A DNA stretch of 64,000 nt from Candidatus Poribacteria bacterium (GTDB taxonomy: Bacteria; Poribacteria; WGA-4E; WGA-3G): assembly GCA_965242965.1 (NCBI GenBank), contig OZ251518.1:4768001-4832000 (forward strand). Direction: 5' to 3'. Numbering within the stretch: position 1 is the stretch's first letter; each line of letters opens with the position of its first letter. Made by a program: the position numbers and the translations under genes. This document shows positions 968-9,457 of the stretch, piece after piece. The notes under the pieces were generated by a model. It was given only the letters and a program-made list of their open reading frames with translations, was not told the DNA's origin and searched no databases.

Positions 968-1125
968 ACCGGTTCGTGAACGTTCTTTCAACACTCGGAC
1001 CGGCCGAAGCGCAACTCCGCATCGGTAAGAAACGACGCGCCGCTTACCCGCGCGTCAACCCCCGCAACTCAACGATGGAGGCAGTCAACTTGCAGAAGCA
1101 GACGCTGCAACTCCGGAGAGTTTAT
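968..1125 (+). ncRNA. putative structured 5' leader RNA, copy 1
   Basis: About 92% identical to 4015-4172. Several stems: CCGGTTCG/CGGACCGG, CCGAAGCG/CGCATCGG, GACGCGC/GCGCGTC, TTGCAG/CTGCAA. Confidence 0.55.
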
Positions 1126-1166
1126 GCAGCCCGTTCAGGGCACGCAATCGCTGATACAAAGAGGAA

Positions 1167-3464
1167 ATGATGCTCAAAGAGACTATCGATCACATTTTCG
1201 AGTTCACGGAAACTCTGACATCCAACGATTCTAACAAAGCCGTAACCAAGCATTTTGTCGTTTTACCTATCCTCCGCGACTTGGAATGGAACTGCGACAA
1301 TCTGGAGAACTTAGAGGTTTTTCCAGACAAAAGCACCGAAAGCGGCACCGTTGACTACGCCTTACAACACGATGGAAAATCGCGCGTATTCATTGTGGTT
1401 AAACGCTGGCCCACAGAACTCGACCCTGATGAACTTTACGATGAAACCGCCCTTTACGCTTCTCAAGAAGAGGTTGATTTTGTCGTTCTCACCAACGGCA
1501 AGACATGGGACTTCTATCTGCCTAATCTACCAGACGTTCCATGGGAAACGAGAAGGTTTTGCTCCATCGATCTTGACAACGAGAATGAGGCAGTCTCCGA
1601 TTTTCAGAAATATCTGTCCAAATCTCATGTTCTGGATGCCAGCGCAAGAGAGGCGGCAGAAGCGATTGTCAAAAAACCGGAAAAACCTACCTCCGAAGAA
1701 CTACTCCGCGATGTCCGGAAGATAATCAGGAAAATTGAGGACAAATCCACCAGCGGCGACTATATCTTCCGCGGCGAACCTGAATGCTATCCGAAAGTCT
1801 CCTCAGCTCTTTACCGCCAATACGAAGAAATTCCGATAGATGGATCCAATGTCGAAGATTTCCAAGATAAGATGCTAATCGCGGCGCAAGAGCATCTCCC
1901 CGGAACAACCAGCGACTCTGAAACCCCAGTAAGGAAACCAGACGACTCTTTTGAGACCTTAACCGAACTCCAACACTACGGGGGTAAAACGAACCTCATC
2001 GACTTTACGACCGATTCTCGTGTAGCACTTTTCTTCGCCTGCGACGGTTCGCCCGGCAAGAAGGGGAGGGTTATCCTACGGAAAAGAGGGGACAGAGAAG
2101 ATCTCGTTGAAAACCCGCGCGAACCGAGCAACCCCCTTAATCGTGTCATCGCTCAGAAGAGCATATTCGTTCGACCTCGCCAAGGCTGCGTTGAATTCAA
2201 TCAAAACAAGGATGTTGTTGAGATTCCGGCAGACCTCAAGAAGCCTATGCTGGAATACCTGCAAAAGTATCACAACATTTCTGCGAAAACTATCTATAAC
2301 GACCTGTATGGATTCATCAGAACACAGGATATCCATCTCAGGGCCTACAAAGAACTTTACAGAGGTTTTTCTGCAGCGGATAAAGATGATCTGGACAAGG
2401 CCATCCGGCACTATAACAAGGCGATAGAACTTAAACCCGATTTTTTCGGAGCCTATAACGACCGCGGTATTGCTTATGGCAAAAAGGGCGACTTTGACAG
2501 TGCTATCAAAGACCTTAACAAGGCAATTGAACTCAACCCTAATCTCGCCGAGGCGTATAACAACCGCGGCCTCTCTTACCTCCAAAAAGGCGAGATTGAT
2601 ACCGCCATTCACAACTACAGCAAGGCAATTGAACTCAACCCTAATCTCGCCGAGGCATATAACAACCTTGGCACTGCTTACCTCCAAACAGGCGAACTTG
2701 ACAACGCCATTCACAACTACAGCAAGGCAATTGAACTCAAACCCAATCGCGTCAAAGTCTATAACAACCGCGGCAAAGCCTATGCAGGAAAAGGTGAGTT
2801 TGACAACGCTATCGCAGATTTTAACAAGGCAATCAAACTCAATCCTGTTGATGCCGAAGCCTATTACAATCGTGGTAACGCTTACGCCCAAAAAGGCGAA
2901 CTTGACAACGCCATCAAAGACTTTACCAAAACAATCGAACTCAATCCCGATTTTTTCGGAACCTATAACAACCGCGGTGTTGCTCATAGCGAAAAGGGCG
3001 AATTTGACAAAGCCATCCAGAACTATGACAAGGCGATAGAACTCCATCCTGTTTACGCCGAAGCCTATTACAACCGCGGCATTGCTTATGACACAAAGGG
3101 CGAATTTGACAAAGCCATCCAGAACTATGACAAGGCGATAGAACTCCATCCCGTTTACGCCGAAGCCTATTACAACCGCGGCACTACTTACTTCCAAAAA
3201 GACGAGGTTGACAACGCTATCAAAGACTTTACCACGGCGATAGAACTCAAACCCGATTCTGCCATTGCCTATTGCAACCGCGGCGAAGCGTGGATGCACC
3301 GCCGCGAATGGGACAAAGCCAAAGCAGACCTAACCGTTGCCAAAAACATGGCTTACAATATCATCGTCTCATTTCAGAGCGATTATGAAAACGTCGCGGA
3401 CTTTGAAGAGAAAAACGGCGTTACGGTGCCACCAGACATCAAGGCAATGCTGACCCCGGCGTAG
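1167..3464 (+). CDS. HsdR_N-like + FRG domain + TPR repeat protein
   Basis: N-terminal VDYAL..VVLTNGKTWDFY resembles the type I restriction HsdR N-domain. FRG motifs YIFRGE and LQHYGGKTNLIDFT..ALFFAC. About 10 34-aa TPR repeats (AYNNRG..Y..KG..D.AI..Y.KAIEL.P). Confidence 0.9.
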   Translation: MMLKETIDHIFEFTETLTSNDSNKAVTKHFVVLPILRDLEWNCDNLENLEVFPDKSTESGTVDYALQHDGKSRVFIVVKRWPTELDPDELYDETALYASQEEVDFVVLTNGKTWDFYLPNLPDVPWETRRFCSIDLDNENEAVSDFQKYLSKSHVLDASAREAAEAIVKKPEKPTSEELLRDVRKIIRKIEDKSTSGDYIFRGEPECYPKVSSALYRQYEEIPIDGSNVEDFQDKMLIAAQEHLPGTTSDSETPVRKPDDSFETLTELQHYGGKTNLIDFTTDSRVALFFACDGSPGKKGRVILRKRGDREDLVENPREPSNPLNRVIAQKSIFVRPRQGCVEFNQNKDVVEIPADLKKPMLEYLQKYHNISAKTIYNDLYGFIRTQDIHLRAYKELYRGFSAADKDDLDKAIRHYNKAIELKPDFFGAYNDRGIAYGKKGDFDSAIKDLNKAIELNPNLAEAYNNRGLSYLQKGEIDTAIHNYSKAIELNPNLAEAYNNLGTAYLQTGELDNAIHNYSKAIELKPNRVKVYNNRGKAYAGKGEFDNAIADFNKAIKLNPVDAEAYYNRGNAYAQKGELDNAIKDFTKTIELNPDFFGTYNNRGVAHSEKGEFDKAIQNYDKAIELHPVYAEAYYNRGIAYDTKGEFDKAIQNYDKAIELHPVYAEAYYNRGTTYFQKDEVDNAIKDFTTAIELKPDSAIAYCNRGEAWMHRREWDKAKADLTVAKNMAYNIIVSFQSDYENVADFEEKNGVTVPPDIKAMLTPA

Positions 3465-3545
3465 GTGCAACCTCCGAAATCTGTCACTTCCCGAATGCGC
3501 AACGCTTTTTTCTTGGCACAAATCGCTTCTTAAGGCTAAATTAAC

Positions 3546-3950
3546 GGGGGTGTTTCATATTTCGATGTGTTCGGTAGGAGAGCCCGCCAGGTCTTGATGT
3601 CTTCTCGGTAGGAGAGACCTCTGGTCTCGATTTTCCCGTAGGGCTTTTCTCTGCCCGTAGCGCGGGGGCCTGTCCCCCGCGATCTCCATCGTCAAGAGGG
3701 GCGTTTTAGGTCCTTAATAAAAACACGCGCGGCCCTGGCAAAGACTATTAAGGACCTAAAGGACCTTAGCGTTCTTCGCAGGCGCGCGGGCTATAGACAT
3801 TAAGGTCCTACGGACCTAAGAGAACCAGAGACGTTTTTCCCGTAGCGCGGACAATGGCGAGGGACAGGCCCTCGCCCTACGATGAAGGGGGGCAGCCCTA
3901 TTGCATCGAGACCAGGAGGTCTCTCCTACGGGGATTTATGAAACCCCCTC
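3546..3950. mobile_element. MITE with 14-bp TIR and 8-bp TSD, carrying REP-like hairpins
   Basis: GGGGGTGTTTCATA ... TATGAAACCCCCTC, flanked by the direct repeat AAATTAAC (3538-3545 and 3951-3958). Confidence 0.85.
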
Positions 3951-4014
3951 AAATTAACGTCATCTTCACATTTTTCTTGCAAAGTTTTGCATTTTATGGT
4001 ATTCTATGTTTAAC

Positions 4015-4172
4015 ACTGGTTCGTGAACGTTCGCTCAACACTCGGACCGGCCGAAGCGCAACACCGCATCGGTAAGAAACGACGCGCCGTTCGACCGCGC
4101 GTCAACACCCGTAACTCAACGATGGAGGCAGTCAACTTGCAGAAGAAGACACTGCAACTCCGGAGAGTTTAT
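4015..4172 (+). ncRNA. putative structured 5' leader RNA, copy 2
   Basis: Near-identical to 968-1125. Follows the promoter TTGCAA..TGGTATTCT (3977-4005). Confidence 0.55.
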
Positions 4173-4223
4173 TCGTATTGTCCCTATTAGGGACACATTT
4201 TTGACTATCACTGAAGAGAGAAG

Positions 4224-5585
4224 ATGAACACGCAACAACCAGACGAACTCAACCGCGTGCTGGAAAAGATCTGTGAGATAGCTGAGAAATCGGCTAGCGG
4301 TGACTACGTCTACCGCGGCGAACCTGCCTGCTATTCTAAAGTCTCCTCAACCCTCTATCGCGAATACGAGGAAGAAATTGACGAGGAGAGTTTTGAGATA
4401 GATGTCGTCCAAGAAGAAATTCTAGGCGAGGCGAGAAAGTATACCCGCGAAACAGCCGATGATTTGGAGATTTTGACAGAACTTCAACACCACGGCGGGA
4501 AAACCAACCTGATCGATTTTACGACTGACTACCTCATTGCTCTTTTCTTTTCATGTGATGGAGAGCATGCCCAAGCCGGCCGGGTTATCTTGCTAGAAAA
4601 GGAATCGGCCGACTACAAGGTCGAAAAACCGCCGAAGACGATTAATCGCGTGGAGTCCCAGAAAAGCATATTCGTGCAAGCATCCGAAGGGTTTGTTGAA
4701 CCGGACGAGGTAGTAACTGTTCCCCAAGACCTTAAGCAGGCTATGCTAAACTATCTGCGGAAGCATCACGACATCTCCACCGAAACTATCTACAACGACT
4801 TGCATGGATTTATCACGAACCGGAGTATCCATGAAAGTGCCTACACGCTGTTTCATAAAGGGATGACCTGTCAAAATCGAGGAGATTCAGCGAAAACGCG
4901 GGCAAAAAAACAGGTGTGGTATGATAAAGCCGTGGGCCATTATACCGAAGCTTTGGAACAGAAACCTGATTTTCACGAGGCCTATAACAATCGCGGTGCT
5001 GCTTACAAGGAAAAAGGTGAACTTGATAACGCGATTCAAGACTTTACCACGGTGATAAAACTCAATCCCGTTTACGCTAAAGCCTATAACAACCGCGGTG
5101 CTGCTTACCTTGAAAAAGGCGAACTTGACAGCGCTATCAATGACTTAACCACGGCGATAGAACTCAATCCTGATTACGCCACAGCCTATTACAACAGCGG
5201 CACTGCTTACCTCCAAAAAGGCGAACTTGACAACGCTATCAATGACTTAACCACGGCGATAGAACTTAAACCCGATTCTGCCAATGCCTATAACAACCGC
5301 GGTGTTGCTCATAGCGAAAAGGACGAATTTGACAAGGCCATCCAGAACTTTGACAAAGCGATCCAATTCAAACCCGATGATGCCACAGCCTATAGCAATC
5401 GCGGCAAAGTGTGGATGCATTTAGGCAAATGGAACAAAGCCAAAGCAGACCTAACCGTTGCCAAGGACAGCGGCGTGGATATCATCGCCTCCTTTCAGAT
5501 CGATTATGAAAGCGTCGCGGACTTTGAGAAGAAAAACGGCGTTACGGTGCCAGCAGACCTCGCGGTGATGCTAACCTCTGAGTAG
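4224..5585 (+). CDS. FRG domain + TPR repeat protein
   Basis: YVYRGE and LQHHGGKTNLIDFTTDYLIALFFSC, about 6 TPRs. C-terminus is homologous to 1167..3464. Confidence 0.9.
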   Translation: MNTQQPDELNRVLEKICEIAEKSASGDYVYRGEPACYSKVSSTLYREYEEEIDEESFEIDVVQEEILGEARKYTRETADDLEILTELQHHGGKTNLIDFTTDYLIALFFSCDGEHAQAGRVILLEKESADYKVEKPPKTINRVESQKSIFVQASEGFVEPDEVVTVPQDLKQAMLNYLRKHHDISTETIYNDLHGFITNRSIHESAYTLFHKGMTCQNRGDSAKTRAKKQVWYDKAVGHYTEALEQKPDFHEAYNNRGAAYKEKGELDNAIQDFTTVIKLNPVYAKAYNNRGAAYLEKGELDSAINDLTTAIELNPDYATAYYNSGTAYLQKGELDNAINDLTTAIELKPDSANAYNNRGVAHSEKDEFDKAIQNFDKAIQFKPDDATAYSNRGKVWMHLGKWNKAKADLTVAKDSGVDIIASFQIDYESVADFEKKNGVTVPADLAVMLTSE

Positions 5586-5665
5586 GTTCAACCTCCAAAA
5601 TCGTCTTTTCCAGATTGTTAGGATTTCTCGTTGCAAATTTACGCAGTTTGTGGTATCCTATCAAG

Positions 5666-5732
5666 GGTTCGTGAACGTTCGCTGCCGAAAGGAGCGGAGA
5701 CTTCTCGGACCCGCCAAAGTGCATTACTGCAC
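5666..5732 (+). ncRNA. shorter variant of the conserved leader, copy 3
   Basis: GGGTTCGTGAACGTTC...TCGGACCC retains the first stem. Includes a GAAA-tetraloop hairpin and GTGCA/TGCAC. Follows the promoter at 5631-5659. Confidence 0.4.
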
Positions 5733-5751: not shown

Positions 5752-6546
5752 ATGAACATACAACAAGACCGGATTGACACGGTGCAAGAAATCGTCACTC
5801 GCGGTTTCAATTACCTAGACCAAGGCCATCTGGACAAGGCTGTCGCGCTCTTCACTACCGTGATAGATCTTGAACCGGACCGGGCCGTAGTTTATCACTA
5901 TCGAGGCGAAGCCTACTACACTCAAGGCGCATTTGACAATGCCATCAGCGATTTTAGCAAGGCGATAGCAATTGAGTCCGACTTTGCCGAAGCCTATAGC
6001 AATCGCGGTATGGCTTACGAGGCTAAAGGTGAACTTGACCTGGCCATCCAAGACTATAATACGGGGATAAGACTGAACCCCCATGAGACATTAGCCTATT
6101 ACCATCGTGCCAGGTTCTACAGTTTCGGTGAGGAAGAGGAAATCGCACTTGACCTGGCCATCCAAGACTATAACATGGCGATAAAATTGGATCGCTATTT
6201 TGTCAACGCCTATCACAATCGCGGGCTGAGTTACTTGATGCTAGAAGACTTTGACCGAGCCGTCGAAGACTTTGACATGGCAATAAAGTTGAATCCAAAT
6301 CTCGTCAATGCCTATAAAGGTCGCGGTATGGCTTACACCTTCATGGAAAAGTTTGAGCATGCTGTCAATGACTATAGCAAGGCAATAGAACTCGATCCTG
6401 ATGATGCTGAAACCTATCGCGATCGCGGCAAAGCATGGATGCACCTTAGCAAATGGGAAAAAGCCGCAGCCGACTTGATTGCGGCCGGTGAAATCCCTCC
6501 TGAAGATGTCGTCGCTGCCTTGAGTGCTTCGGAATCTGAGTCGTAA
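5752..6546 (+). CDS. TPR repeat protein
   Basis: GGAGG RBS before ATG 5752. About 7 TPRs. Confidence 0.9.
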   Translation: MNIQQDRIDTVQEIVTRGFNYLDQGHLDKAVALFTTVIDLEPDRAVVYHYRGEAYYTQGAFDNAISDFSKAIAIESDFAEAYSNRGMAYEAKGELDLAIQDYNTGIRLNPHETLAYYHRARFYSFGEEEEIALDLAIQDYNMAIKLDRYFVNAYHNRGLSYLMLEDFDRAVEDFDMAIKLNPNLVNAYKGRGMAYTFMEKFEHAVNDYSKAIELDPDDAETYRDRGKAWMHLSKWEKAAADLIAAGEIPPEDVVAALSASESES

Positions 6547-6640: not shown

Positions 6641-6670
6641 TTGACATTACGTTGTTTTTTATGGTATACT
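6641..6670 (+). promoter_or_regulatory. sigma70-like promoter of the R-M operon
   Basis: TTGACA-N18-TATACT with a TG extension. Confidence 0.6.
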
Positions 6671-6743
6671 AATTCCATACGAAACTTACGCGAAAACCGT
6701 CTTGGATTTCCATCTGAGACGTTAACATGACGGAGTCCAACTC

Positions 6744-8057
6744 ATGTCGCCGAATGAAATTTTTGACTGGTTTAACCAAACACCCATTGATAAGACCTGG
6801 TCATTTGACGGATGCAAACCGTCAGACACAGGGAAATGGACGCACGGGTACCATCGCTACCCCGCCAAGTTTATTCCTCAACTTGTTGAGCGTCTGATCG
6901 ATACCTACATATCCAACGGGTCCGCTCACGTAAACGATCCGTTTATGGGATGTGGCACAACTGTTGTCACTGCGATATCCAGAGGGTTTCAAGCGAGCGG
7001 CACGGACATTAACAAAGTCGCTCATTTGGTAACCCAAACGAAAGCGTCCCCGATCCAACCCGACTATCTTGACAAAAAAGTTAAGCAATTTTTGTCACGA
7101 ATTTGTCCGCTCGGTGAAGGGCAGAGTTTTTTCGGCACACGCCAGGTCTGCCCCCAAATTCCAGATAAACATCTGGAACGGATTGACTATTGGTTTACAG
7201 AAGAAACGCGTGATGAAATGGGGAAAATCCTAAACGTGATTCTGGACGAAACGGATCAAGCGGTTCGGTGTTTCCTTCTCGTAGCGTTTAGTCACGTTCT
7301 CAAAACCTGTTCGATTTGGAGCCAAGGGAGCACCAAACCGACGCGCGATTTGAGGAAACGGCCGACACTTCCGTACGATGCGATCAAACGGCACCTCACC
7401 AAGATGCTAAAGGGAAACACGCATTTTTATCAAGTCGTGCCATCTCATGTGCGAGACCTGTTGGATGGTTATCTAAACGTCCACGTGGGCTCCGCCGAAA
7501 GACAATCTGTACCCGATGATAGCGTTGATCTGATCGTCAGTTCAAGTCCTTACGTGACAAGTTACGAATATGCCGATCTACATCAACTGTCAACGATCTG
7601 GTTGGATTTAGCCGATGACCTGAAAGAATACAGAAAACAGTTCATTGGAACGTCCTACAAGCACTACGATGACAAACCGCTGCGGAGTCAAATCGCCTCC
7701 GAGATTGTCTCCCAAATGGTGCCCCAAAGTAGGAAAAAAGCGAAAGAAATTGAAGCCTTCTTCATCGACATGCAGGAGGTGTTCAATGAGAGTTTTAGAA
7801 TCCTGAAACCGGGGGGCAGATGTTGCTACGTCATTGGCAACACGAAGCTCAAAGGTGTTGAAATCCTCAACGCCGAAGCCTTCGCGGAGTCCCTGCAATA
7901 CTCAGGCTTCAAACTCGATCGGCTCATTAAGCGGGAAATCCCCTTGAAAATTCTCCCCCAGAAACGGGATGAAAAAACTGGGAGATTTGCCAGTAAGGAT
8001 AAAGCCGACTCCGAAGCGTACCCAACAGAGTATGTCGTGATTGGGTTAAAGGAGTAG
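6744..8057 (+). CDS. DNA methyltransferase (N4-C/N6-A amino-MTase) of a type II R-M system
   Basis: HGYHRYPAKF, DPFMGCGTT (motif I), SSPY (variant of motif IV SPPY), RILKPGG. Confidence 0.88.
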   Translation: MSPNEIFDWFNQTPIDKTWSFDGCKPSDTGKWTHGYHRYPAKFIPQLVERLIDTYISNGSAHVNDPFMGCGTTVVTAISRGFQASGTDINKVAHLVTQTKASPIQPDYLDKKVKQFLSRICPLGEGQSFFGTRQVCPQIPDKHLERIDYWFTEETRDEMGKILNVILDETDQAVRCFLLVAFSHVLKTCSIWSQGSTKPTRDLRKRPTLPYDAIKRHLTKMLKGNTHFYQVVPSHVRDLLDGYLNVHVGSAERQSVPDDSVDLIVSSSPYVTSYEYADLHQLSTIWLDLADDLKEYRKQFIGTSYKHYDDKPLRSQIASEIVSQMVPQSRKKAKEIEAFFIDMQEVFNESFRILKPGGRCCYVIGNTKLKGVEILNAEAFAESLQYSGFKLDRLIKREIPLKILPQKRDEKTGRFASKDKADSEAYPTEYVVIGLKE

Positions 8058-8063
8058 GGAATC

Positions 8064-8762
8064 ATGAATTTTGAAGACCTGAAAAATATGTACTCGGCGG
8101 CGCAGTTAAGCGAAGGCGCGGAAGCCTATCGGTCTGTTTCCCAACTCTTGCAGGATGCCAAGGGACAGCATAAGCAAGATTTTTTGAGGGCTAAGCCGCA
8201 CGGAGACCACGAACAGAGCTGGCGTGCCTTTAAGGGCAAAAACTTTGAGAAATTGATTCGACACATTATCACGGACTCAATTGAAGCCCTCGGAATGAAG
8301 GTAATCGACGGTAATAAATTGGAGAAGAGCAAAAGCGTAAACCTGTCGCAGGAATTAAGCCAAGTGAAGCGAAATTTGGCAATTGATTACGGCGAGTTTG
8401 GTTTGCATCTCCCCGACGTTGATATTGTCGTCTACAACCCTAAAAATTGCAGGGTTATCGCTTTAATCTCCAGCAAAGTCACGTTGAGAGAACGGATTGC
8501 CCAGACAGGCTACTGGAAACTCAAATTGCTGGAAGATAAAACTACCGCTAACATCAAGGTCTATTTTATCACGCCTGACGAAGATGGAACCTTGACGAGC
8601 GCATATCTTCCCAAGAAAGGACGAGCGATTGTTGAGGTCGACCTTGATGGCACCTATGTCCTAACCGAGGCATCGCTTGAGCAGAGTGACAAGGTTAAAC
8701 TGTTTGAGCATTTCATTGATGATTTCAGGCAGTTAATCGAAGAGAGCAAGGCATCTTTATGA
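8064..8762 (+). CDS. type II restriction endonuclease, BsaWI-like
   Basis: QSWRAFKGKNFEKLI, PDVDIVVY and SSKVTLRERIAQ (PD..KxxLRER motif of the CCGG family). Directly follows the MTase. Confidence 0.8.
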   Translation: MNFEDLKNMYSAAQLSEGAEAYRSVSQLLQDAKGQHKQDFLRAKPHGDHEQSWRAFKGKNFEKLIRHIITDSIEALGMKVIDGNKLEKSKSVNLSQELSQVKRNLAIDYGEFGLHLPDVDIVVYNPKNCRVIALISSKVTLRERIAQTGYWKLKLLEDKTTANIKVYFITPDEDGTLTSAYLPKKGRAIVEVDLDGTYVLTEASLEQSDKVKLFEHFIDDFRQLIEESKASL

Positions 8763-8869
8763 AACTTGCTGGTGGCGCGTAGTCCGACGAAGGCTATAAG
8801 CCCCTCACTGAAAAACGGAGTGTTAGGCATCAGAGCAACCGCGCCTAACGAAAGAAAAGGAGGATTCGC

Positions 8870-9457
8870 GTGTCAAAACCAACGGTTAGGGGACTTGTTA
8901 TGGAGTTCTTTGAAAATCACCCCAACCAAGAGATCCCGCACGCTCTTGTCTTGGCTTGGGTGGATCCAAAGTATGAGGAAGCGCACGGCCGCCGCCCTCT
9001 TGATACACGGCGAAGAATCAGAGATCTCTGTAAGGAAAACAAACTCACTAAGATTCGTGACGGTGTCTACAAATATGACCCGAATCGTGCCCAAGGTGTC
9101 AAGTTGCGAGGTTTCTCAGAAACTACAAAGAGAGACGCATTGGAACGAGATAACTACCAATGTGTTCTCTGTGGCCGCGGGCGCGAAGATGGGATTACCC
9201 TCACCGTAGACCACATCATTCCAAGGGATAATGACGGCCCCAACACCCTTGAAAACGCTCAAACGCTCTGTTCTCAACACAATCTGCTCAAGAAGAACTA
9301 CTCCCAAACCGAAGCCGGGAAACGGTACTTCATCAGAATGCATGAAACCGCGGTTGCCAATCAGGACGAGAAGATGATAGCGTTCTGCCGAGCGGTTTTC
9401 GATGCTTACGATGAATACGAAGTGGACTTCCACATCCCGCGACCGGACAGGGACTAA
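8870..9457 (+). CDS. HNH endonuclease with an N-terminal wHTH-like region
   Basis: AGGAGG RBS with GTG start. RDNYQCVLCG..TVDHIIP..NAQTLCSQHNLLKKN. Confidence 0.85.
   Translation: MSKPTVRGLVMEFFENHPNQEIPHALVLAWVDPKYEEAHGRRPLDTRRRIRDLCKENKLTKIRDGVYKYDPNRAQGVKLRGFSETTKRDALERDNYQCVLCGRGREDGITLTVDHIIPRDNDGPNTLENAQTLCSQHNLLKKNYSQTEAGKRYFIRMHETAVANQDEKMIAFCRAVFDAYDEYEVDFHIPRPDRD

Follow-up and report, generated by a model that had tools for sequence, protein, structure and literature searches.

A structured 5′-leader RNA family, most likely new and cis-acting, shared by a candidate defence-gene regulon in one genus of Candidatus Poribacteria

Within a window of 64,000 nucleotides (nt) from a Candidatus Poribacteria bacterium (contig OZ251518.1 of assembly GCA_965242965.1, positions 4,768,001 to 4,832,000; the whole stretch of DNA that was analysed), a non-coding block of 158 nt precedes two genes encoding FRG and tetratricopeptide repeat (TPR) domains, and a shorter copy precedes a TPR gene. 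We find that these copies belong to a new family of modular, structured 5′-leader RNAs of one Candidatus Poribacteria genus, which is most likely a cis-leader shared by a defence-gene regulon and not specific to FRG-TPR genes. That the family is real and structured is much more certain than its mechanism: we give an even chance to the reading that the leader acts in cis as a platform on which one lineage-specific factor docks to set the elongation or stability of all these mRNAs, which would make them a regulon. Briefly, the leader begins with a 5′ stem domain (the first 35–50 nt) in which helix P1 (GGUUCG/CGGACC) encloses the conserved internal loop of UGAAC and CAC-U together with a variable inner hairpin, P2. 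Its middle holds the variable hairpins Pv and P3 (GACGCG/CGCGUC), and its core of 60–90 nt comprises P4 (AACUC/GAGUU), P5 (GGAG/CUCC) and the near-invariant GGAGGCAGUCAACUUGCAG...CUGCAACUCC, with a hairpin of variable length inserted at one fixed site.

An earlier note on the window, made from the letters, had described two copies of the block with about 12 differences, all in loops or linkers or converting C-G to U-G, and this description was fully borne out. The two blocks (968–1125 and 4015–4172) align without gaps and differ at exactly 12 positions (92% identity by BLAST), namely block positions 3, 19, 20, 49, 76, 78–80, 93, 98, 132 and 137. Position 3 turns a C-G pair of P1 into U-G, ten differences lie in hairpin loops or linkers, and position 137 changes U-G to U-A within one of two alternative core helices; the six stems that had been named are found in both copies, CCGAAGCG/CGCAUCGG with one A-A mismatch. 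GGTTCGTGAACGTTC, a 15-mer, is present at positions 971, 4018 and 5666 of the window, three occurrences where 0.21 would be expected from shuffles. As had been proposed, the 5′ stem persists in the third copy (5665–5712), where one C-G pair has become G-C and an additional hairpin with a GAAA loop is inserted; the sequences following the blocks of copies 1 and 2 bear no relation to each other (0.275 ungapped identity in 40 nt); and the encoded proteins differ at the N-terminus, the FRG domain of gene 1 beginning at residue 198 and that of gene 2 at residue 27.

Related leaders are found well outside the window. BLAST of the block against its own genome returned partial matches at many further sites, and a motif search with GGAGGCAGUCAACUUG...CUGCAACUC from the second half of the block recovered 15 copies there. 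A covariance model of the core (R1, built from alignment A3) returned the identical 15 copies at 61–87 bits, plus one weak match at E 0.3. Across 101 related genomes, R1 matched in three, all of the same genus (15, 10 and 12 matches, three weak ones between the two sister genomes included), and found nothing at E ≤ 0.001 in the other 98 (58 from the family of this genus, 40 from three others), which were searched with stricter filters; in five genomes of neighbouring genera, it found none at E up to 1. A second model, of the 5′ domain (R2, from the 28 sequences of alignment A5), gave 18, 11 and 12 matches in the three genomes of the genus. The modules are separable, six leaders of the own genome (copy 3 among them) being a 5′ domain without a core, and a core copy at 812k standing without a 5′ domain that its sister-genome orthologue does have. 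A scan of 185,579 species genomes with a sequence pattern returned six contigs titled Candidatus Poribacteria and one Thermoanaerobaculales contig; this last match, from a metagenome-assembled genome, has no match to R1 and was rejected as a family member. R2 also gave two weak matches (E about 1e-5) in a sister-genus genome, G004, and a loose pattern search in neighbouring genera gave three matches, one of them the diverged leader of G004. At that locus (L166, C1 4377531–4380587, around 1501–1760), the leader has a good 5′ domain and a core that keeps only GGUAGUCAAC and GUGCAAC, within a different outer stem, GGAC/GUCC. There may accordingly be more distant, older relatives beyond the reach of R1 and R2.

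The supposition that the block belongs to no known RNA family held: none of the 4227 models of Rfam 15 matched at gathering score across the window, and a search of 15 leader loci at E up to 10 gave only CRISPR-DR64 (20.2 bits vs 40) and STnc290 (18.5 vs 60), both at chance level. Poribacteria-1 is an Rfam RNA motif, a candidate structured RNA reported from Poribacteria. Its name appears neither in the main text of PMC5737381 nor in the literature searched, and Rfam searches of the leaders matched neither it nor any other family. As regards a phage origin, no match was found among 50,697 phage records, and the core pattern was absent from IMG/VR and from the JGI metagenomes (0 matches). Five JGI matches of the 5′-domain pattern were discarded as chance, scoring only 10.8–18.4 bits with R2 and lying inside coding sequence of unrelated contigs.

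Comparison among homologs supported pairing in the 5′ domain, P3 and the core, with thin covariation in the last. In the 5′ domain, 86.4% of alignment cells are paired (56.1% in the best slid arrangement), none of 500 shuffles reaches its pairing or its covariation score, and seven pairs are changed on both sides. P3 is paired in 78.8% of cells over 33 copies (best slid 53.2%), a level of pairing again reached by 0/500 shuffles. Core pair counts were taken over 36 distinct copies; here the helix GCAGU/ACUGC is 91.6% paired (best slid 53.7%), with 16/500 shuffles reaching its pairing and 8/500 its covariation score, and UUGCAG/CUGCAA, the helix drawn in the earlier note, is 92.2% paired (best slid 54.3%; 2/500 for either measure). 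P5 shows exchanges of A-U to C-G and of G-C to A-U, and UUGCAG/CUGCAA one exchange of G-C to A-U, in two orthologous rows.

The two core helices are mutually exclusive, the 3′ CUGC being able to pair with either of two GCAG repeats. Both alternatives, helices a and b, are about 97% paired across the copies and close in energy: constrained folding of 34 sequences separated them by 0.7 kcal/mol on average, helix b being the more stable in 22, helix a in 10 and neither in 2. The core may be a conserved two-state element in the region GCAGUCAAC/UUGCAG, as far as these computed folds indicate. A kink-turn at the P4/P5 internal loop was considered and set aside by eye, its 5′ strand not ending in GA.

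The same alignments bear on whether the conserved unit is RNA, DNA or protein. A DNA operator, GTTC-GT-GAAC, had been offered as one alternative, and its palindrome is lost across the family, GTTCGTGAAC becoming GTTCGTGCCGG, GTTCGTGGCGG and others, where the RNA pairing GGUUCG/CGGACC is kept. At one pair of P1 a U-G wobble is retained in 24 of the 28 sequences, and it therefore fits sense-strand RNA and not a DNA palindrome. The other alternative was a leader peptide, read in a GTG frame through the block or from a UUG that follows GGAGG by 8 nt. The GTG frame is indeed open through both window blocks (64 and 55 codons), but the 12 differences between copies 1 and 2, read in that frame, are mostly non-synonymous, as the earlier note itself had observed. 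Moreover, the frame is stopped in 14 of 25 copies, distances between anchors are spread evenly over the three frames (9/8/8 and 10/7/11 modulo 3), and the UUG after GGAGG is directly followed by UAG in four copies of the own genome, so that we regard a leader peptide as barely credible.

All 15 core copies of the own genome have an open reading frame on the same strand, starting 21–591 nt downstream. Of the 21 leaders, 19 have an extended −10 promoter-like site in the 110 nt upstream; the leaders begin a few to about 25 nt past this strong, sigma-70-type promoter. In the window, TTG(T/C)AA-17 nt-TGGTAT(C/T)CT precedes all three copies, as had been claimed. Copies placed without regard to promoters or TPR genes had been named as evidence that would speak against a regulatory leader; the tie to promoters holds (19/21), that to TPR genes in particular does not. 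In four of six orthologous pairs, the leader is more conserved than the fourfold third positions of its gene (0.87/0.55, 0.95/0.57, 0.84/0.72 and 0.79/0.49). Among the best-supported variants listed from contigs of four public runs, those of copy 1 fall only at 982–988, in the loop of its 5′ domain, with several in the flanks. Two complete leaders stand in tandem before a C5 cytosine methylase gene in two genomes (L102 1154–1591 and L103 1501–1940), with no promoter between them and apparently on one transcript; elsewhere duplicated leader units each have their own promoter. Two more strong promoters of the same type (genome C1 1287074 and 3907840, minus strand) precede a different shared leader, AACUGAAGUGCCGGUGUUAAGUGCC..., whose final segment, GUCGCGCGCCGUUUUGA, is similar to the 5′ arm of P3; it may be a second leader family.

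These data also address the possibility that the leader has no RNA function, being either part of a promoter-leader cassette spread by duplication, recombination or gene conversion (a ‘mobile promoter’) or a set of DNA sites for transcription factors, with incidental hairpins. Consistent with it are the narrow distribution and high similarity of the copies, the near-identical copies clustered within 4 kb (4561k, 4564k and 4565k), the occurrence of the promoter type without a leader in 7 of 14 strict matches, and the decayed or truncated copies at 3779608, 925475 and L106. It is nevertheless decidedly unlikely in our estimate: changes on both sides preserve the pairing of P1, P2, P3 and P5, the conserved G-U wobbles work only in sense-strand RNA, the DNA palindrome is not kept, every copy lies in sense with its downstream gene, and conservation beyond synonymous sites is seen in the four pairs given above. 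Integron attI/attC sites were likewise considered and rejected, the copies being scattered, each with its own promoter, and no matching core site being seen.

The genes behind the leaders, identified with Pfam and PADLOC, are mostly low-GC defence genes. PADLOC, run on 10 first or second genes, places them in anti-phage defence, nine of the ten proteins matching at E ≤ 1e-5 and six below 1e-40. The leader-driven genes include PbeA (4.6e-246) with an SMC-like ATPase, two TmtA proteins (3e-194 and 3e-106), a GmrSD/Orf5 type IV restriction enzyme (1.5e-89; by eye, an HNH-like open reading frame lies two genes on), a protein combining HKD and SNF2 domains (PLD-SNF2, 1.2e-64), an AAA_15 ATPase (NsnB, 3.2e-44), a STAND NTPase followed by an AAA-HEPN protein, two HSDR_N-N6 methylases (HSDR_N-N6_Mtase, the second behind a 5′ domain only), an HSDR_N-tubulin-like protein followed by an XPB-type helicase, a HATPase_c_3 protein, an operon of a PAPS-reductase-like gene, an HNH gene, two CD-NTase genes and a patatin gene, and the two FRG-TPR genes of the window. 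Besides copy 3, the leaders without a core precede the second HSDR_N-N6 methylase, an SNase-like nuclease, a Sel1-trypsin protein, an open reading frame of 73 amino acids (aa), and a 1070-aa protein without family match that is followed by an HNH-PIN protein. In the sister genomes, leaders that are not orthologous to these precede genes for a C5 methylase, a HerA-like ATPase, Csm6, ParB_N proteins and another HSDR_N methylase. Fourteen leader-driven genes have a mean GC of 0.480, compared with 0.542 (standard deviation 0.022) for 2-kb windows of the genome, and 13 of them fall within its lowest 4%; on account of this low GC, they look horizontally acquired.

Two of these loci have an unusual make-up. 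At L122 (genome C1 2447742–2453941), the order is PAPS-reductase-like, HNH_2, CD-NTase, patatin and second CD-NTase, a CBASS-like operon with two cyclases and extra genes in front. At L123 (genome C1 3578684–3584883), the leader drives a fusion of HSDR_N_2 and a tubulin-like domain (Tubulin_2), followed by a 217-aa protein without family match, the XPB-type helicase and a fourth gene, which together look like an uncharacterised conflict system.

FRG is described, in PMC9503650, as a predicted antiviral effector of the ART superfamily. The earlier note had tied the leader to FRG-TPR and TPR genes, either as a cis-regulatory RNA or as an RNA partner of the FRG-TPR proteins. A partner or cofactor RNA specific to these proteins would agree with the three leaders in the window's FRG-TPR/TPR cluster, but only 2 of the 15 core copies of the own genome precede FRG-TPR genes, the other 13 preceding other genes, and the sister-genome leaders stand before the C5 methylase, HerA, Csm6 and ParB_N genes. 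The distribution of leaders thus contradicts this idea, which we consider improbable in the extreme. What survives of the cis-regulatory proposal is the structured, strand-specific, non-coding leader, without Rfam match and supported by pairing and covariation; its special tie to FRG-TPR genes does not.

If the leader is a docking platform, it would act in cis on its own mRNA, its conserved unpaired and bistable parts docking one shared, lineage-specific, trans-acting factor, most likely a protein. The factor would set transcript elongation or stability, and about twenty horizontally acquired low-GC genes of defence and host interaction would be controlled as one regulon. The near-equal core helices and the tandem leaders before the C5 methylase gene hint at a switch or at an effect of dosage. 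A bolder version, which we put forward as rather unlikely, is an RNA-level master switch of the immune gene set, in which the bistable core, acting as a sensor, would tie the expression of about twenty unrelated defence systems, along with that of some host-interaction proteins, to a single signal, perhaps infection by phage, a cue given by the sponge host or an RNA-binding regulator specific to the lineage. We know of no described cis-acting RNA that coordinates a whole set of defence systems. Literature searches on defence islands and cis-regulatory RNA motifs found no paper on a leader shared by defence genes among those listed, and one on processive antitermination together with defence systems found nothing.

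Several observations weigh against the docking platform. Searches for a partner were negative: no neighbouring regulator gene recurs (upstream of 20 leaders, only paralogous TPR and methylase genes do), the core has no antisense match outside the leaders, and a specialised NusG paralogue was rejected, PF02357 giving one match per genome in 26 of 26 genomes, the three leader-bearing ones included. Covariation in the core is thin because the core hardly varies, with only 4–5 pairs changed on both sides and shuffles matching in 2–41 of 500, and related copies inflate even these counts. No expression platform common to the leaders was found, only 5 of the 36 having a terminator-like hairpin in the 130 nt that follow the core; nor is any pairing with the ribosome site conserved among the leaders. 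Start codons follow at anything from about 20 to more than 250 nt, a spread that makes control by occluding the ribosome site improbable. A recognisable promoter was not found at 2 of the 21 leaders. Two of the six orthologous pairs show no extra conservation of the leader (0.83 vs 0.90 and 0.62 vs 0.68), and the likeness of paralogous leaders could reflect gene conversion or recent spread, not selection. Some driven genes fall outside defence (an LRR-dockerin protein, the Sel1-trypsin protein and TPR proteins) or have no family match (the 73-aa and 1070-aa proteins), and the family is limited to one genus plus a diverged form in one sister-genus genome. Finally, transcription of the leader, its start and 3′ end included, its action in cis, the existence of the factor and the level of control are all predicted from DNA sequence; none of 18 listed sequencing runs is recorded as RNA.

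The empty partner searches would be expected if the leader were an enabling element that works without a factor, the nascent RNA modifying RNA polymerase or blocking Rho in the manner of the put RNA of phage HK022 and the EAR RNA of Bacillus, or the 5′-terminal stem protecting the mRNA, so that AT-richer foreign genes are fully expressed with neither signal nor partner. Leaders right behind promoters at variable distance from the start codon are what one expects of elements acting on elongation or stability; the driven genes tend to be long, many measuring 2–3.6 kb, and are compositionally foreign (the 13 of 14 in the lowest 4% of GC); and P1 begins, in the window copies, within a few nt of the predicted 5′ end. 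However, two separable modules, many invariant unpaired bases and a bistable helix exceed what a stabiliser needs, terminator-like sites occur in just the 5 of 36 leader-to-gene spacers noted above (the part of the operons that was scanned), and the Rfam search, in a library that holds the put and EAR families, gave no similarity to either. On balance, we find such an element a fairly unlikely alternative.

The bistable core raises the further alternative of a riboswitch, in which the core, perhaps with the 5′ domain, would bind a small molecule signalling infection or stress and flip its helices. Near-invariant loop and junction bases, a hairpin of variable length inserted at one fixed place, two mutually exclusive and near-isoenergetic helices kept across copies, tandem copies on one transcript, and a ribosome site or terminator-like hairpin directly after a few leaders would all suit it. 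Yet the leaders lack a consistent expression platform, the modules are also found separately, the driven genes (nucleases, ATPases, methylases and repeat proteins) have no metabolic theme that would suggest a ligand, and, where ligand-sensing classes tend to occur widely, this family keeps to a single genus. We therefore rate a riboswitch as quite unlikely, below the factor-independent element.

The leader has partial parallels among known systems. The JUMPStart/ops elements recognised by RfaH, LoaP and UpxY are likewise short elements that recur, within one genome, in the 5′ leaders of numerous horizontally acquired operons with no relation to one another, and for which the distance to the start codon is irrelevant. 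The ops core sequence is GGCGGTAG, which the leader-core segment GGAGGCAG (variants GGAGGTAG and GGCGGCAG) may resemble. Nevertheless, ops is a DNA element of 8–12 nt that needs a NusG paralogue, whereas the leader is an RNA of roughly 160 nt with supported helices in genomes with a single NusG match each, and ops targets are polysaccharide, pilus or toxin operons and not defence genes. BrxR/CapW-type (WYL) repressors are DNA-binding proteins encoded beside each defence system and shared by many. They resemble the leader, in general terms, as one regulatory device reused before many unrelated anti-phage systems, but the device here is an RNA, with no recurrent regulator gene beside it. Riboswitches share with the leader a conserved, structured 5′ untranslated region, invariant junction bases, alternative helices and occasional tandem copies; the leader differs in having no common expression platform or ligand theme, in its separable modules and in its restriction to one genus. 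Repeats of the repetitive extragenic palindromic (REP) and bacterial interspersed mosaic element (BIME) type and ‘mobile promoters’ are also multi-copy, hairpin-forming intergenic sequences of one lineage; unlike them, the leader is promoter-proximal, in sense, with invariant unpaired segments and compensated helices, and tied to one gene class. The antiterminator RNAs put (phage HK022), EAR (Bacillus eps operons) and conAn (conjugative elements) are, according to PMC9378689 and PMC8191782, 70–130-nt structured RNAs made right behind the promoter and acting on their own transcript, a likeness that for the leader rests in its position. They occur once or twice per element, compared with about 20 leaders per genome, and show no similarity to it in sequence or model.

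The three window copies, all on the plus strand, illustrate the modular design. Copy 1 follows a promoter-like site at 933–961 (TTGTAA, a 17-nt spacer and the extended −10 TGG-TATCCT), and its RNA is predicted to start near 967–968; a generic promoter scan requiring at least 9 hexamer matches omitted the sites of this type, whose letters count to 8 of 12. The 5′ stem domain (969–1003) consists of P1, CCGGUUCG/CGGACCGG, closing the conserved UGAAC and CAC-U loop, with the inner hairpin P2 shrunk to a loop (R2 match at genome 4768959–4769006, E 8.7e-7). It is followed by Pv (1004–1025, CCGAAGCG/CGCAUCGG), which appears in the minimum free energy folds of copies 1 and 2 and differs in length and sequence between family members, and by P3 (1034–1056, GACGCGC/GCGCGUC). 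The core (1066–1128; 72.1 bits with R1) holds P4, P5, the near-invariant segments and the start of a conserved tail, whose family consensus is GAGUUUAUUCG. Gene 1 (1167–3464) encodes 765 aa with an FRG domain (residues 198–294) and TPR repeats according to Pfam, at a GC of 0.474.

Copy 2 has the same arrangement, with a promoter-like site at 3977–4005 (TTGCAA, 17 nt, TGG-TATTCT), a 5′ stem domain at 4016–4050 (R2 match at genome 4772006–4772053, E 4.4e-9), Pv and P3 in the computed fold at 4051–4072 and 4081–4103 (4051–4103 together), and a core with tail GAGUUUAUUCG at 4113–4175 (76.9 bits with R1). Between this core and gene 2 lies a terminator-like hairpin, TGTCCCTATTAGGGACA, with a T-run (4179–4205), restricted to this paralogue group. 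Gene 2 (4224–5585; 453 aa, GC 0.477) again encodes an FRG domain (residues 27–116) and TPR repeats by Pfam. Copy 3, behind a promoter-like site at 5631–5659 (TTGCAA, 17 nt, TGG-TATCCT), is a 5′ domain only (5665–5712; R2 match at genome 4773654–4773716, E 5.7e-7), with P1 GGGUUCG/CGGACCC, P2 with its GAAA loop, and neither P3 nor core. A short hairpin, GUGCAUUACUGCAC (5719–5732), follows upstream of a GGAGG ribosome site and the ATG at 5752 of gene 3 (5752–6546), a 264-aa TPR protein.

Further features surround these genes. Nested REP-like inverted repeats fill 3570–3935 between gene 1 and the promoter of copy 2 (arms 3574–3599/3904–3929, 3656–3683/3854–3881 and 3705–3719/3746–3760); the depth of this segment in public contigs is far above that of its flanks, and it is therefore highly multi-copy. 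Similar repeats adjoin other leaders (442k and 812k) and at 3779608 stand in place of the core. The TPR parts of both FRG-TPR genes (2470–3300 and 4950–5400) contain very similar 102-nt repeat units, which public contigs bridge in differing ways, for example skipping 3254–4981; the number of TPR repeats, or recombination between the FRG-TPR paralogues, may vary by strain. After gene 3 come a strong promoter-like site (6641–6670; 11/12 matches with TG) and a type II restriction-modification pair with an HNH gene, namely an N6_N4-family DNA methylase (6744–8057), a BsaWI-like restriction endonuclease (8064–8762) and an HNH protein (8870–9457). The genes of 6641–9457 and the FRG-TPR genes form a small defence island, bounded downstream by thiD-like and murJ-like genes.

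Defence systems are usually studied singly, and their known shared regulators are DNA-binding proteins. Here the same structured leader stands before about twenty unrelated acquired immune genes, among them restriction, Tiamat-like, Pbe-like, CBASS-like, STAND/HEPN and FRG-TPR systems. The organism is an uncultivated sponge symbiont, but the RNA, a compact and testable molecule of about 160 nt whose modules are separable and whose conserved core helix may have two states, is still accessible in vitro and in reporter strains. If functional, the leader would show a host bringing newly acquired defence genes under one post-initiation control, in a regulon that could be defined from sequence alone.

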